DNA of 46,171 nt from an uncultured Candidatus Saccharibacteria bacterium (lineage in GTDB: Bacteria > Patescibacteriota > Minisyncoccia > UBA6257 > WO2-44-18): assembly GCA_964545345.1 (NCBI GenBank), contig CAZJFE010000002.1, positions 1 to 46,171 on the forward strand. Reading direction: 5' to 3'. The notes beneath the pieces are model-generated. The model searched no databases. It was not told the DNA's origin and saw only the letters and a list, made by a program, of their open reading frames with translations. The stretch's first letter is position 1. Each line of letters starts with the position of its first letter. Below, piece by piece: positions 9,606-37,644 of the stretch. The translations under genes and the position numbers were made by a program.

Positions 9606-9953
9606 ATGAAAAGCATCGGAATAGACATTGTTGAAGTAAAAAGATTTCGAAATGTCCCATACAAAAAGGGCAGCGTTTTTTATTCCAAAATCTTCAGCGA
9701 TGCCGAAATCAAATATTGTTTATCTAAAGATGACCCCTACCCGCACTTCGCCGCGCGCTTCGCCGCGAAAGAAGCGGTTTTGAAGTGTTTGAAGAGCACA
9801 ATCTATAAAATAAAGGAGGTGGAGATTCTTAACGATAAGAAGGGCGTTCCGTTTGTCCGACTTCACGGTCGTAAGTCGTTAGTCGTTAGTCGTTTCTTGA
9901 TTTCGCTATCGCACACTAAAGATCAGGCCGCCGCCATCGCATTCTTACAATGA
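9606..9953 (+). CDS. acpS: Holo-[acyl-carrier-protein] synthase (4'-phosphopantetheinyl transferase)
   Basis: IGIDIVEVKRF, FAARFAAKEAVLKC and ISLSHT motifs. Length 115 aa. Confidence 0.85.
   Translation: MKSIGIDIVEVKRFRNVPYKKGSVFYSKIFSDAEIKYCLSKDDPYPHFAARFAAKEAVLKCLKSTIYKIKEVEILNDKKGVPFVRLHGRKSLVVSRFLISLSHTKDQAAAIAFLQ
9867..9894 (+). repeat. Tandem heptanucleotide repeat inside acpS (GGTCGTA AGTCGTT AGTCGTT AGTCGTT)
   Basis: Read directly from the sequence. It encodes RKSLVVSRF. The stop triplets created by the repeat (9872, 9880, 9887) all fall in the two non-coding frames. Confidence 0.8.
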
Positions 9954-11431
9954 TTAAATTAGTTCAAGAATATTTTTCGGAATCGGCTAGAAAATATCCT
10001 GACCATCCGGCGGTAGTTTTTGGCGAACGGCGCCCAACCTTCAGCGAGTTAGAGAAATCTTCTAATCAGTTCGCGAGGTTTTTGCGAGATAAGGGAGTTA
10101 GAAAGGGAGATCGGGTGGCTTTTTGTCTGTCGAAATCAGTTGAGGCCATTGAATCGATTTTGGGAATCTTGAAGGCTGATGCGGTTTATGTGCCACTCAA
10201 TGCAAAAGCTCCTAAGGCTCGGATGTCGCAGATCATTGAAGATGCCAGGCCCGCTTTAGTTATTTGCGATATGGATACTTCAAAGTTAGTCGGGGAGGTA
10301 AAGATTTTTAATATCCAGACCGACCGTTCTTCTATTTTGGGATTTGAAGATCGCGCCGTTGATTATCAAAATGCTGGTTCGGATCCGGCTTATATTCTAT
10401 ATACCTCCGGATCTACTGGCGTCCCGAAAGGCGTGATGATTACTCACGACAATATTATCAATGCTACCGATTGGGCGGTGGATGAATTCGGAATTTCTCA
10501 TGGTGACCGACTCTCTCAGCACCCACCCTTGTATTTTGATCTCTCCACCTTTGATTTGTATTGCGCTTTTAGCGCCGGAGCTACCTTGTTTCTAGTGCCG
10601 GAGTCGCTTTCAATCTTCCCCGGTCAGCTGATGAGATTCATTGAGGAGAACGAACTGACGATTTGGGACTCCGTGCCATCGGTGATGGTTTATTTGTCCA
10701 ATGCTGATGTTGTGAAGGCGGGAAGAATGCCGAGTGTTCGAAAGATATTTTTCAATGGAGAGGGTTTCCCGGCCCGGTTTCTAGCGGAGTGGATGAAAAC
10801 TTTTCCAGAAAAAGAATTTATTAATATGTATGGTCCAACCGAGACCACCGTGCAGTGTACTTTTTATCGCATTCCTGAACCGCCGCAAGATTTAACGAAG
10901 TTGGTTCCGATTGGGAAAGCTTGTCGCGGAGTGGAAGTTTTTGATGTTGAGGGAGAGTTGTACGTGGCTGGAAAGGGTGTCGGTAAGGGTTATTGGAATA
11001 ATTCCGAAAAGACCAAAGCGTCTTTTGTGCCTGACGCGCGTCCGGGGAAGTCGGGGTTGGTTTATAAAACCGGAGATTTAGTTAGTTTGCGCGAGGACGG
11101 CAATTACGAATTCATTGGCCGGAAAGATTTCCAGGTAAAGATTATGGGAAATCGGATAGAGTTGGGCGATGTTGAGGCAGCCCTACTGGCCCTGCCTTGC
11201 GTTGCTGAGGCGGCAGTAATTGCAGTGGCGGTGAATGAAACTGACGGAAGCGAAATGGTCGGCTTTGTTAAGCTCAAGGAGGCGCGAGAAGAATCATTGA
11301 TCAAAGCCGATTTAGCTAATTTGATCCCTAGTTATATGATCCCGGCAAAGATTGTAGTTCAAGATTTTTTGCCCAGAACTAGCACCGGCAAGGTGGATAG
11401 GAATAAATTAAAAGATGGATATAAAGTCTAA
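9950..11431 (+). CDS. Adenylate-forming enzyme, amino acid/aryl acid--carrier protein ligase (DltA-like, stand-alone A domain)
   Basis: AMP-binding core motifs LYTSGSTGVPKGV, YGPTE, YKTGDL and GRKDFQVKIMGNRIELGDVE, plus a terminal GKVDR motif. The ATGA overlap with the acpS stop indicates coupling. Confidence 0.85.
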   Translation: MIKLVQEYFSESARKYPDHPAVVFGERRPTFSELEKSSNQFARFLRDKGVRKGDRVAFCLSKSVEAIESILGILKADAVYVPLNAKAPKARMSQIIEDARPALVICDMDTSKLVGEVKIFNIQTDRSSILGFEDRAVDYQNAGSDPAYILYTSGSTGVPKGVMITHDNIINATDWAVDEFGISHGDRLSQHPPLYFDLSTFDLYCAFSAGATLFLVPESLSIFPGQLMRFIEENELTIWDSVPSVMVYLSNADVVKAGRMPSVRKIFFNGEGFPARFLAEWMKTFPEKEFINMYGPTETTVQCTFYRIPEPPQDLTKLVPIGKACRGVEVFDVEGELYVAGKGVGKGYWNNSEKTKASFVPDARPGKSGLVYKTGDLVSLREDGNYEFIGRKDFQVKIMGNRIELGDVEAALLALPCVAEAAVIAVAVNETDGSEMVGFVKLKEAREESLIKADLANLIPSYMIPAKIVVQDFLPRTSTGKVDRNKLKDGYKV

Positions 11432-13896: not shown

Positions 13897-14621
13897 TGGC
13901 AAAAATTTTGGGAGTTATCACCGCGCGGGGTGGCTCTAAGGGAATCCCGGGTAAAAACATTAAGCCGCTGTTAGGTAAGCCGTTAATCGCTTACACGATT
14001 GAAGCCGCCAAAGCATCAAGCGTGGTTGATCGTTTGATTCTTTCTACCGACGATCTGGAAATTGCTGAAGTGGCGAAGCAATACGGTTGTGAGGTCCCAT
14101 TTATTCGTCCAGCTGACATCGCCGACGATAAAGCCGCGCATTTACCGGTATTGCAACACGCGATTAAAGCTTTGAAAGAAAAGGACGGTTATGAGCCGGA
14201 CTATGTTTTGTTGCTCCAACCGACCTCTCCGGCCCGGCAATCCTTTCATATCAAGGAAGCCGTGGAGTTGATAGAGAAAAGCGGCGCGGATTCCGTTTTG
14301 AGCGTGGCGGAAATCCCGGAGAATTTTCATTACAAGAAAGCGATGGCCGTTAATGAAGATGGAGTTTTGCGGTTAGTTAAGGATTCCGGGCCAATTTATA
14401 ACCGAGTGGCCCGTCGCCAAGATTTGGAAAAAAACTACTGGAGCGTTGGTTCTATTTATCTTTTCAAAACTAGTTTGTTGTTTGATCAGGTAAAGCCGAA
14501 TTTTTATGGCGAAAAAACTATGCCCTACGTGATAGACGCGAAGTATGTCGTGGATATTAATGTTCCCGCGGATTGGGAAGTGGCCGAAAAAGTGATCAAA
14601 CGACTAACGACTAACGACTAA
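13896..14621 (+). CDS. neuA: Acylneuraminate (nonulosonate) cytidylyltransferase
   Basis: ITARGGSKGIPGKNIKPLLGKPLIAYTIEAA is the CMP-NulO synthetase N-terminal signature. The start overlaps the neuC stop. Confidence 0.85.
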   Translation: MAKILGVITARGGSKGIPGKNIKPLLGKPLIAYTIEAAKASSVVDRLILSTDDLEIAEVAKQYGCEVPFIRPADIADDKAAHLPVLQHAIKALKEKDGYEPDYVLLLQPTSPARQSFHIKEAVELIEKSGADSVLSVAEIPENFHYKKAMAVNEDGVLRLVKDSGPIYNRVARRQDLEKNYWSVGSIYLFKTSLLFDQVKPNFYGEKTMPYVIDAKYVVDINVPADWEVAEKVIKRLTTND

Positions 14622-14626
14622 CGACT
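14599..14626 (+). repeat. Perfect tandem heptanucleotide repeat (AACGACT)x4, containing the neuA stop and abutting the next ATG
   Basis: Four exact units. It is the reverse complement of the AGTCGTT repeat found at the other loci. TAA recurs every 7 nt, so stops occur in all three frames. The ATG at 14627 follows immediately. Confidence 0.9.
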
Positions 14627-15562
14627 ATGAAAATTTTAATTACCGAGCCGCAGGATTATTCCAAGAAAGCTGTTGAGATGTATAAATCTCACGGCGATGT
14701 GGTTTTAGGTGGTGAGCCGGACGCGGAGACGGGGGTGATAGCGATTCGGTTAAAACACAAGATTGATAAGAGCTGGATGGATAAAATGCCGAATTTAAAA
14801 ATTATTGCTTCACCAACTACCGGATTGAATCACATAGATATCGCCGAGGCGGAGAAGCGGGGCATTAAATTGATCACTTTACGTGGACATACCGACTTTT
14901 TGGATAAGATCACTTCTACCGCCGAAGAAACTTTGGGATTGATACTGGCTCTAGTTCGCAAGATTCCGCAAGCGCACGAGCATGTTAAGGGCGGAGGATG
15001 GAATCGCGACGCTTTCCGAGGTTATCAGTTGGCCGGTCAAACACTCGGCATATTAGGATTGGGTCGGCTTGGTCGGATGGTGGCGCGTTATGCAAAATCA
15101 ATGGACATGAAAGTAGTCGCCGCTGATCCCGGTATTACCGGAGAGGAAATGAGCAAGCAAGGAGTAACAAAAGTTAGCCACGAAGAATTATTCAAAAATT
15201 CCGACATTCTTTCTTTGCACGTGATGTTGACCGATAATACTAAGAATTTAGTGAAAGAGGGAGATTTGAAGTTAATGAAGCCGTCGGCTTTGTTAGTGAA
15301 TACGGCTCGGGCGGAAATTATGGAAAAGGGAGCTTTAGAAAAAGCATTGAGAGAAAAATGGATCGCCGGGGCGGCGGTAGATGTGATGTGGGACGAAGAG
15401 GGTAGTGGCGCGCATTTGGCCAAGAGTGAACTCTGGGATATGGCAAAAAGCGGTCAGCATAATTTGATTATCGTTCCGCATATCGGGGGCGCCACTTATG
15501 ACGCCATGCAAATCACCGAAGAATTTATCGCCGATTTAGTGAAAAAAGAATTAACAAAGTAA
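14627..15562 (+). CDS. D-isomer-specific 2-hydroxyacid dehydrogenase, NAD-binding
   Basis: GILGLGRLGRMVARY dinucleotide motif and the catalytic-His context VPHIGGAT. Length 311 aa. Confidence 0.8.
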   Translation: MKILITEPQDYSKKAVEMYKSHGDVVLGGEPDAETGVIAIRLKHKIDKSWMDKMPNLKIIASPTTGLNHIDIAEAEKRGIKLITLRGHTDFLDKITSTAEETLGLILALVRKIPQAHEHVKGGGWNRDAFRGYQLAGQTLGILGLGRLGRMVARYAKSMDMKVVAADPGITGEEMSKQGVTKVSHEELFKNSDILSLHVMLTDNTKNLVKEGDLKLMKPSALLVNTARAEIMEKGALEKALREKWIAGAAVDVMWDEEGSGAHLAKSELWDMAKSGQHNLIIVPHIGGATYDAMQITEEFIADLVKKELTK

Positions 15563-26768: not shown

Positions 26769-26900
26769 ATGAATCCCGTTAGAAACAGCCAAACCTAAAT
26801 AACCATGACAATTAATATGCAAAAATCAGTCGTGAATAAAAAAGTAGTATGTGTGCCACGGGTACGCCCGGCAGGCGCACCCTGCTTCTAACGGGATGAA
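26769..26900 (+). promoter_or_regulatory. Start-codon-masking long-range inverted repeat, copy 2 (12+3 bp stem, about 93-nt loop, mini-ORF MNPVRNSQT*)
   Basis: ATCCCGTTAGAA (26773-26784) pairs with TTCTAACGGGAT (26886-26897), extended by CAG/CTG after one mismatch. The 3' arm ends in the ATG at 26896. ATGAA lies on both flanks. Confidence 0.7.
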
Positions 26901-32589: not shown

Positions 32590-32738
32590 TTGCGGGCTGT
32601 AAGCAAAGCTTTCGGCCCATCACTCGGAGAAAGCGCACAAGTAAGCTTGTCCGATTCTCCTTCGTTCGGGCTGTAAGCAGAGCTTGCAGCCCATCATTCG
32701 GAAGAAGCGTACAAGCGAGCTAGTACGATCTTCCTTCA
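32590..32738 (+). repeat. Two tandem 74-75-nt units, each folding into two hairpins, sharing the 5' sequence TTCGGGCTGTA with the tRNA that follows
   Basis: Unit A spans 32590-32664 and unit B 32665-32738, about 80 percent identical. The stem of hairpin 2 changes GGAGAA/TTCTCC to GGAAGA/TCTTCC, which is compensatory. Confidence 0.7.
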
Positions 32739-32740
32739 TT

Positions 32741-32919
32741 CGGGCTGTAGTATATCGGCAGTACACACGCCCCGCCCCCACACCAAAATTTCGGAGAGTA
32801 GTATATCGGCAGTACACACGCTTCGGGTGCGTGAAGGCCGGGTTCGATTCCCGGCTCTCCGACGGTGTGGTGTGGGGGTGAAGGTGCGTGAGGGCTGGGT
32901 TCGATTCCCAGCAGCCCGA
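32741..32919 (+). tRNA. Interrupted tRNA-Pro-like gene (outer): intact acceptor, D, anticodon-stem and T arms, but 115 nt in place of the 7-nt anticodon loop
   Basis: The 5' part is CGGGCTG TA GTAT ATCGGCA GTAC A CACGC (32741-32770). The 3' part is GCGTG AGGG CTGGG TTCGATT CCCAG CAGCCCG A (32886-32919). C1-G72 and A73 match the Pro signature. No identifiable NGG loop. Confidence 0.6.
32792..32862 (+). tRNA. tRNA-Pro (anticodon CGG), 71 nt, no encoded CCA
   Basis: Manual cloverleaf: CGGAGAG/CTCTCCG acceptor, D arm GTAT-ATCGGCA-GTAC, anticodon arm CACGC-TTCGGGT-GCGTG, 4-nt variable loop, T arm CCGGG-TTCGATT-CCCGG, and A73. Confidence 0.85.
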
Positions 32920-36854: not shown

Positions 36855-37007
36855 ATGGCGCCACAACAAAATCTGGTTAAATTTCAGCTCCAGTACGCTT
36901 CCGGCGAGTTTCATAGATTTATTAATTTAGTCGTGGAATACAAGTGGTGGATTCTTGGCGGCATCGTTGTCTTCTTATTGCTTCTCCGTTGGCTGTGGCG
37001 CCGGTAG
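36855..37007 (+). CDS. Unlisted small ORF, 50 aa, C-terminal TM helix (tail-anchored)
   Basis: The ATG abuts the trxB stop (TAGATG). The translation is MAPQQNLVKFQLQYASGEFHRFINLVVEYKWWILGGIVVFLLLLRWLWRR. It is below the 60-aa cutoff of the ORF track. Confidence 0.4.
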   Translation: MAPQQNLVKFQLQYASGEFHRFINLVVEYKWWILGGIVVFLLLLRWLWRR

Positions 37008-37041
37008 CCCTTCTATTTGGGGATAAGCTAAAAATGTGATC

Positions 37042-37050
37042 TGGTATAAT
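37042..37050 (+). promoter_or_regulatory. Extended -10 promoter TGgTATAAT, 7 nt before the upstream ATG at 37058
   Basis: TG at 37042-37043 and TATAAT at 37045-37050. The predicted transcription start falls at or next to A37058. Confidence 0.55.
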
Positions 37051-37057
37051 TAAGTTA

Positions 37058-37181
37058 ATGAATCCCACACATAACAAAGAGTGCCGTGGGATCGTAATAG
37101 TCGTCGGGCGTAATTTATAAACATAAAAAATAATTAAAGACAGAGAGCGAATAAATAACTCTTTGTTATGTGTGGGATGAA
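37058..37181 (+). promoter_or_regulatory. Start-codon-masking long-range inverted repeat, copy 3 (21-bp perfect stem, 75-nt loop, mini-ORF of 20 codons)
   Basis: ATCCCACACATAACAAAGAGT (37062-37082) is the exact reverse complement of 37158-37178. The 3' arm ends in the ATG at 37177. ATGAAT lies on both flanks. The uORF (MNPTHNKECRGIVIVVGRNL*) spans 37058-37120. Confidence 0.75.
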
Positions 37182-37587
37182 TAAAAAAATGCTTCTTTGG
37201 TTAGTGGTTGCCGCTGTTTTGTTGGTCGGAGGGTATTTAGTTTTTGGTCCGGGTAAATCCGTAGTTCCCCTACCAGGTCTGGGAACATCACCGACTCCAA
37301 GCACTCAGCCGTCGCCCGCTCCGACTACCGGAGGATTAGTTCAGGTAGCGATTCGCGGATTCTCGTTTGTAGGAGCAAGTACTAAGGTGGTGCCTGGCAC
37401 TACTGTCGTTTGGAAGAATTTTGATGATGTGAATCACAGCGTTGTTGGAGCTAGTTTCCAGAGTAAAATTTTGGGTAAGGGGGGATCTTATTCCTATAAG
37501 TTTACTAAAGAAGGCACCTATCCCTATTACGACGGTCTCCACCCTGAAACCAAAGGTGAGATCATCGTTCGGAACAGTAATTTCTAG
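37177..37587 (+). CDS. Membrane-anchored cupredoxin-fold protein (plastocyanin/amicyanin-like) lacking the canonical Cys ligand
   Basis: N-terminal TM segment, a Pro/Thr linker, then VVWKNFDDVNHSV...GTYPYYDGLHPETKGEIIV. In the position of Y-C-x-x-H-x-x-M the sequence reads Y-D-G-L-H-P-E-T. Confidence 0.65.
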   Translation: MNKKMLLWLVVAAVLLVGGYLVFGPGKSVVPLPGLGTSPTPSTQPSPAPTTGGLVQVAIRGFSFVGASTKVVPGTTVVWKNFDDVNHSVVGASFQSKILGKGGSYSYKFTKEGTYPYYDGLHPETKGEIIVRNSNF

Positions 37588-37608: not shown

Positions 37609-37644
37609 AAAAAATAATTGCTAAACTCTTAGCAATTATTTTTT
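37609..37644. terminator. Bidirectional A/T-flanked terminator hairpin
   Basis: A 16-bp stem AAAAAATAATTGCTAA / TTAGCAATTATTTTTT with loop ACTC. It abuts the ATG at 37645. Confidence 0.8.

Follow-up and report, generated by a model that had tools for sequence, protein, structure and literature searches.

The cupredoxin locus and its inverted repeat

The window, by which we mean the whole stretch of 46,171 nucleotides that was analysed, belongs to a genome of the Patescibacteria (CPR); GCA_007376325.1 contains the same locus, and homologues are named Patescibacteria. On the + strand, positions 37177-37587 encode a cupredoxin of 136 aa with an N-terminal membrane anchor (Pfam Copper-bind / Cupredoxin_1). 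Directly on its start codon lies an element of 117 bp with the ends ATCCC ... GGGAT, referred to here as copy 3. The 5' arm, a terminal inverted repeat of the sequence ATCCCACACATAACAAAGAGT (37062-37082, +), is the exact reverse complement of the 3' arm ACTCTTTGTTATGTGTGGGAT (37158-37178, +), whose final two bases are the AT of the cupredoxin ATG at 37177. These arms form a perfect 21-bp repeat, which is the top inverted repeat of the 46-kb window and has 0 matches in window shuffles; as RNA, the region folds with -39.9 kcal/mol (z = -5.1). ATGAAT occurs twice, at 37058-37063 and 37177-37182, and an extended -10 box, TGgTATAAT (TGGTATAAT, 37042-37050, +), leaves 7 nt between its TATAAT and A37058. 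From there an upstream open reading frame (uORF) of 20 codons, MNPTHNKECRGIVIVVGRNL, runs from 37058 to 37120 (+); its codons 2-9 are the 5' arm, and its stop codon (37118-37120) lies 57 nt upstream of the main AUG. The initial annotation had described the helix that ends in the start codon, the duplicated ATGAAT, the box 7 nt before the upstream ATG, and the 20-codon uORF, and every one of these features is present.

The arms enclose an AT-rich variable interior (37083-37157, +). Its 3' part (GAGCGAATAAATA) aligns with copies of the same sub-subfamily at other genes, and near its 5' end a GTGGGAT (37086-37092, +) duplicates the end of the 3' arm, which could provide a decoy or an alternative helix with the start of the 5' arm. 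Copy 3 has the internal copy of the 3'-arm end but not the 3' hairpin found in many family members. On the other side of the cupredoxin gene, a terminator-like hairpin with a perfect 16-bp stem (AAAAAATAATTGCTAA/TTAGCAATTATTTTTT) occupies 37609-37644, and its T-run directly adjoins the ATG (37645) of the next gene, which encodes a lamin-tail-domain protein, with a spacer of zero.

Two further copies of the layout ATG...ATCCC / GGGATG are found in the window, confirming the initial annotation, which had listed them as copies 1 and 2 with the same helix ends; both have arms ATCCCGTTAGAA... and belong to what we call the main family. Copy 1 (1297-1412, +) consists of an upstream ATGAA (1297-1301) and the element itself (1302-1412; arms ATCCCGTTAGAAAT), which lies on the start codon (1411) of an NAD-dependent epimerase gene. 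Copy 2 (26769-26897, +), with an upstream ATGA (26769-26772) and the element at 26773-26897, lies on the start codon (26896) of a nucleotidyltransferase gene. In 3/3 window copies, a recognisable gene (epimerase, nucleotidyltransferase, and cupredoxin) naturally begins at the downstream ATG.

Elsewhere in the window, tRNA-Pro(CGG) (32792-32863) lies inside an apparent second tRNA gene that is split in the anticodon arm (32741-32917), with a 5' part from 32741 to ~32770, a 3' part from ~32886 to 32917, and complementary acceptor halves. The interruption of ~113 nt is bounded by an inverted repeat (CCCCCACACC / GGTGTGGTGTGGGGG) similar to the CCCACAC arms of copy 3. For the outer tRNA to function, the helix-bounded insert would have to be excised at the RNA level; neither an ARAGORN run with introns nor splicing in silico settled what the outer split gene is. 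Directly upstream of it, two 74-nt tandem units (32593-32749) each begin with the CGGGCTGTA that also forms the 5' end of this tRNA, and fold into an acceptor-like mini-helix plus a second hairpin; these units have no Rfam match. The window also holds two perfect heptamer tandems whose units are mutual reverse complements: AACGACT x4.1 (14599-14627), which stops precisely at the ATG with which the gene at 14627 begins, and GTCGTTA x3.9 (9868-9894), inside or near the junction of the genes at 9606-9953 and 9950-11431.

Related loci without the element

The element is absent at the cupredoxin loci of the three closest relatives, whose proteins share 96, 81, and 69% aa identity with that of the window. 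There, the -10 box is followed after 6-7 nt by ATGAATAAAAAAATG without an element; the DNA of the closest relative (L122, 96%) reads ...gatttGGTATACTgaagttaATGAATAAAAAAATGCTT, and the loci at 81% (L123-126) and 69% (L127) are likewise without the element. The empty cupredoxin site gttaATGAATAAAAAAATG corresponds to gttaATGA/ATCCC...GGGAT/GAATAAAAAAATG in the window (slashes mark the element boundaries), and the target-site duplication is seen when the empty gttaATGAATAAAA is set against the filled gttaATGA/.../GAATAAAA. The exact difference between the window and its empty relatives is ATCCC...GGGAT plus a repeated GA; the same difference may equally be read as a duplication of ATGA, or of as much as ATGAAT. 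A 2-bp duplication of AT was ruled out against the empty site. The insertion of copy 3 is shown to be precise.

The ATGA at 37058-37061 (+) is, from this comparison of empty and filled sites, the upstream copy of the duplicated target, and the upstream ATG (37058) is predicted to be the original leaderless start position, which now opens the uORF; the uORF is then a by-product of insertion. The ATGAAT repeat, which the initial annotation had listed as duplicated on both flanks, is a target-site duplication and not a designed signal. The cupredoxin start codon now consists of the terminal AT of the element and the duplicated G, and the orthologues begin at the same MNKK.

Copies 1 and 2 are also missing in their closest relatives, at 91-94% identity. 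The empty site of copy 1 reads gttaATGAAATCCTCC (L223/L224), and those of copy 2 read ggcaATGAAAGGAG (L218/L219) and ggaaATGAAGGGCG (L220/221). Insertions that vary between genomes at 91-96% protein identity could serve as strain-level markers.

A more distant cupredoxin locus (L128, 54% aa identity) has an insertion at the same ATGA, and the inserted element belongs to the subfamily of copy 3. We tried and rejected the reading that this copy and the window copy are orthologous; their interiors have a likeness of 0.51, and the window copy is no closer to it than to copies at other genes (0.59 to L194). Because the interiors are no more alike than those of other-gene copies, independent insertion at the same site is more likely than inheritance. 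Near-identical copies at different genes of one genome were found in L065 (two) and L072 (two), and in L063, L110, and L015 an element was inserted in tandem into the ATGA left by an earlier copy.

A family of elements on start codons

The initial annotation had proposed a genome-wide search for the arm pattern. Scanning one genome per species for ATCCCGTTAGA-N76-106-TCTAACGGGAT, the pattern of the arms of copies 1 and 2, gave at least 120 genome loci, mostly in Patescibacteria (Saccharibacteria, Paceibacteria/Parcubacteria, Kaiser-, Nomura-, Wolfe-, Levy- and other CPR), and the arm type of copy 3 (ATCCCNCACATAAC...GTTATGTGNGGGAT) was found at 89 loci in a metagenome scan. Hainich groundwater samples (ERZ12926xx) are rich in copies. 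In viral contigs, the main-family pattern had 0 matches. Main-family elements also occur in MAGs without a Patescibacteria label, mostly again at ATGA start codons: L064, L080, and L081 are labelled Sedimentisphaerales, L016 Omnitrophota, L061 WOR-3, and L029/L045/L051 Gammaproteobacteria. For L064, a binning error is probably not the cause because the contig is 211 kb long.

About 90% of copies lie on start codons, and these belong to unrelated genes (topA-, typA-, and murG-like genes, epimerase, and others). Open reading frames that begin at the downstream ATG have 238 codons in the median; 10 of them are short, and several of these are followed by a further element in tandem. The flanks of the 117 oriented main-family copies fall into three classes, ATGN-element-GN (103/117), ATG-element-G (7/117), and ATGNN-element-GNN (7/117), so that the duplicated part after AT is 2 nt long in 103/117 copies but can also be 1 or 3 nt. 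The duplicated bases are identical in 112/117 main-family copies, and in the copy-3 family 62/63 have ATGN...GN with matching bases. The fourth base of ATGN therefore matches site by site, even among related copies, which rules out an insertion of the IS200/IS605 type (no duplication, an element-borne right-end tetranucleotide) and equally an ATGN carried along from a retrotransposed leaderless transcript. An integron attC was also rejected, as the GTTAGA/TCTAAC boxes are in reverse order.

In 113/117 copies, the interior points the same way with respect to the gene. In the other four (L040, L069, L023 (1783), and L009), the interior is inverted and the flanks are normal, as expected of occasional recombination between inverted arms. 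Main-family arms span 11-20 bp (median 14, 117 copies) and are almost perfect, and the interior of the family is AT-rich (GC 0.31). Many copies have a GG...CC hairpin just 5' of the 3' arm, the stems of which are compensated. The internal motif that repeats the 3'-arm end occurs in ~24% of copies, 7-27 nt downstream of the 5' arm, which is 2.6-2.7x the shuffle expectation and holds in this orientation only.

We found no autonomous or transposase-bearing version with arms 140-4000 bp apart in 1.4 Mb of fetched loci. Rfam 15, run on the window and 14 loci at the gathering threshold, returned tRNAs only, and a permissive Rfam scan of 36950-37300 gave a chance miRNA match alone.

Pairing between the arms is maintained

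The arms of L128 differ from those of the window copy by two compensated changes, and arm position 6 varies across 63 copies as A:T (33), C:G (16), and T:A (7). Judging from these substitutions, pairing between the arms holds while the sequence changes, which bears out the proposal in the initial annotation that pairing, not sequence, is kept. The asymmetry of G:U versus A:C in the arms, a test for selection on an RNA versus a DNA hairpin, was not significant. Of the two strands, the sense strand gives the better fold, a difference that may reflect strand composition.

Predicted leaderless initiation and possible translation through the element

Almost none of the window genes have a Shine-Dalgarno (SD) sequence, and in many of them the ATG is preceded at 6-7 nt by a TATAAT-like box (TATAAT/TAAAAT/TAAACT, e.g., 35446, 38496(-), 38974, 45123, 17099, and 18028), which suggests that leaderless mRNAs are widespread in this CPR genome. 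At the cupredoxin gene, G[GC]TATA[AC]T is kept 6-7 nt before the ATG in five orthologous loci (among L122, L123-126, L127, and L128), and it is conserved at both filled and empty loci. The box at 37042-37050 is part of the promoter of the cupredoxin host gene and not of the element. Because the duplication does not alter the DNA before the original ATG, the signal for initiation passes to the upstream ATG, whose position is the one where a leaderless mRNA would start, as had been predicted. Family-wide, TAnnnT peaks 6, 7, and 9 nt before the upstream ATG (49/117 copies). We also considered and rejected an outward promoter inside the element: its -10-like hexamers are equally frequent on the sense and antisense strands and have no preferred distance to the AUG, and the 3' arm is without a plausible -10 at leaderless spacing.

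In the main family, the variable region is free of stop codons in the frame of the upstream ATG in 37/117 copies, compared with 11 and 9 in the other frames. When each sequence cluster is represented by one copy, the proportions are 31/103 for this frame vs 21/206 for the others (p = 2e-5). Crossing uORFs end at the UAA in the 3' arm, 4 nt before the AUG, in 25/50 copies with that spacing and at the UGA of AUGA in 10/39; a uORF stop that overlaps or adjoins the main start is present in 36/117 main-family copies, but not in copy 3. In-frame read-through into the gene was found in 1/28. This frame pattern suggests that ribosomes may read through the main-family element, opening the helix and initiating anew at the true AUG; it would also fit selection against N-terminal extensions. 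The copy-3 family has 15, 10, and 3 copies with stop-free frames, a bias that is not significant (clustered p = 0.46). The earlier proposal that the uORF is translated is thus favoured by the frame signs of the main family; in the copy-3 family the bias does not reach significance, and neither the peptide nor its length is conserved.

The upstream ATG has been lost, with the gene intact, in 12/119 main-family and 15/73 copy-3-family copies. As 10-20% of copies are without it, the uORF is not strictly required, and it is at most helpful rather than essential.

Insertion at the start codon and proposed rescue of expression

We consider copy 3, with high but not full confidence, to be a non-autonomous hairpin mobile element that was recently inserted at the leaderless start of the cupredoxin gene, which uORF translation would keep expressed. 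For the family as a whole, the aligned copies show many insertions at start codons, in a fixed orientation, with arm pairing kept. Integration at the cupredoxin start codon duplicated the target ATGA (generally ATGN), so that the terminal AT of the element and the duplicated G rebuild an intact start codon and open reading frame behind the element, and the upstream target copy stays promoter-proximal (+1). Ribosomes would load at the upstream AUG, translate the 5' arm, and hold the helix open, which would make the true AUG usable. In many family members the ribosome would then stop at a UAA or UGA right at the true AUG, where it could re-initiate; in copy 3, with its early uORF end, coupling would rely on helix melting or occlusion and not on termination and re-initiation. 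We infer this rescue by the uORF rather than assert it, because the uORF of copy 3 stops early and because of the copies that lack the upstream ATG.

Among the alternatives, one accepts the mobile insertion and differs in the rescue: the helix would be cut, e.g., by RNase III, to yield a near-leaderless mRNA that starts within the 3' arm or directly behind it. Neisseria Correia elements and rRNA intervening sequences are processed by helix cutting, and here a perfect duplex of 14-21 bp with maintained pairing, a host that uses leaderless or SD-less starts, and the copies without an upstream ATG that still head intact genes would all suit such processing. It would not by itself predict the uORF frame bias or the avoidance of in-frame fusion, however, and the arms have no G:U bias, so we regard it as rather unlikely, if worth serious consideration. 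Initiation at the foot of the helix is a further candidate. A further proposal has the ribosome hop, with the initiator tRNA on the 5'-terminal AUG re-pairing with the identical downstream AUG and the element being skipped. The duplicated AUG(N) does supply identical take-off and landing triplets that the helix would juxtapose, and 5'-terminal AUGs have reportedly been seen to recruit ribosomes for a downstream start in E. coli ptrB. Against hopping stand the signs of translation through the element in the uORF frames, the persistence of copies without the upstream ATG, and the want of a stop after the take-off codon, unlike in T4 gene 60; we hold it to be highly improbable.

Another reading takes the helix for a cis-regulatory RNA that is conserved at the cupredoxin gene, as a leader, thermosensor, riboswitch, or ribozyme, and that sequesters the start codon until uORF translation or a ligand opens it. 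This reading could draw on the very stable helix that covers the AU of the AUG, on the covarying arms, and on the better folding of the sense strand. It is largely refuted by the empty sites. A cupredoxin-specific regulator does not fit an element that is absent from the three closest orthologous loci and present on unrelated genes; the interior is moreover not conserved, and there is no Rfam match at the gathering score or at a permissive E-value. We give this reading slightly less credence still than hopping. The slimmest chance goes to an inverton, in which the inverted repeats would be recombination sites and inversion would switch a promoter in the AT-rich segment. The repeats do flank a 75-95 bp AT-rich segment directly before genes, -10-like hexamers occur on both strands, and the interior is opposite in 4/117 copies (L040, L069, L023_1783, and L009), but an orientation of 113:4 is not the mixture that switching implies, the -10 boxes have no strand bias, and outside the repeat there is already a promoter of the host. 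No nearby recombinase was seen, and polymorphic presence and absence together with ATGN duplication are features of a transposon.

Returning to the mobile element with rescue through the uORF, we tentatively propose, at somewhat below even confidence, that it represents a previously undescribed class of selfish elements, spread across Patescibacteria and a few other phyla, which home to start codons, rebuild them, leave the earlier leaderless start ahead of them as a short uORF, and carry a hairpin that translation of this uORF opens. Full-text literature searches, which included the arm sequence itself, did not find the element described, and neither start-codon targeting nor start-codon repair was found described in the literature searched. 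If true, such an element would be as silent in phenotype as an intron or intein, except that its silence would arise during translation initiation. In so compact a genome, the start codon is apparently one of few positions that tolerate a lasting transposon insertion. Hundreds of independent insertions between a leaderless start and its open reading frame amount to a natural experiment on how starts are selected on leaderless mRNAs without an SD sequence, and the uORF frame statistics already hint at re-initiation.

The elements also corrupt the annotation of start sites in CPR genomes, where gene callers extend open reading frames into them. The cupredoxin of the window is called from 37168, inside the 3' arm, as MCGM..., and for several nucleotidyltransferase homologues (P0126-P0128) the call exceeds the 233-aa open reading frame by 10-14 aa. 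CPR start-site annotation may be systematically off at these elements.

Comparison with known systems

The element is closest in kind to bacterial MITEs, REPINs, and Rickettsia palindromic elements (RPEs). With MITEs it shares terminal inverted repeats, a target duplication that is evident against the empty site, and many copies at unrelated sites. The likeness to the Correia elements of Neisseria extends further: both are non-autonomous and ~100-150 bp long, their terminal inverted repeats are long and their target duplications short, and both occur in many copies per genome, differ in presence and absence between strains, form a long hairpin, and are co-transcribed with a neighbouring gene. 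For Correia elements, the duplicated target is TA and the insertion sites are intergenic, at no set distance from genes, whereas the element described here lies on the ATG(N) of start codons in ~90% of cases, in a single orientation, with its terminal AT serving to rebuild the start codon.

REPINs are likewise hairpin-forming inverted doublets of ~100 nt, and their arms covary as they do here, which suggests a single-stranded intermediate. They are doublets of REP sequences moved by RAYT transposases in genomes with a RAYT gene, and are extragenic, without target duplication or association with start codons; here, in contrast, ~90% of copies are on start codons. RPEs share a palindromic structure, a selfish character, and the ability to survive in gene bodies of reduced genomes without destroying the gene. 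They are inserted in frame and translated as part of the protein, however, while in-frame read-through of the present element is almost absent (1/28) and the open reading frame is restored downstream of it.

The proposed expression of the interrupted gene has its nearest parallel in translational coupling to uORFs and in 5'-terminal upstream AUGs, where a start likewise lies at the 5' end of the mRNA and a helix includes the main start codon; many copies even have the stops that overlap or adjoin the main AUG (AUGA, UAACGGGAUG). Unlike in those systems, the peptide is not conserved here, copy 3 is without the stop-next-to-start geometry, and the arrangement was made by the duplication of a transposon target and did not evolve for one gene.
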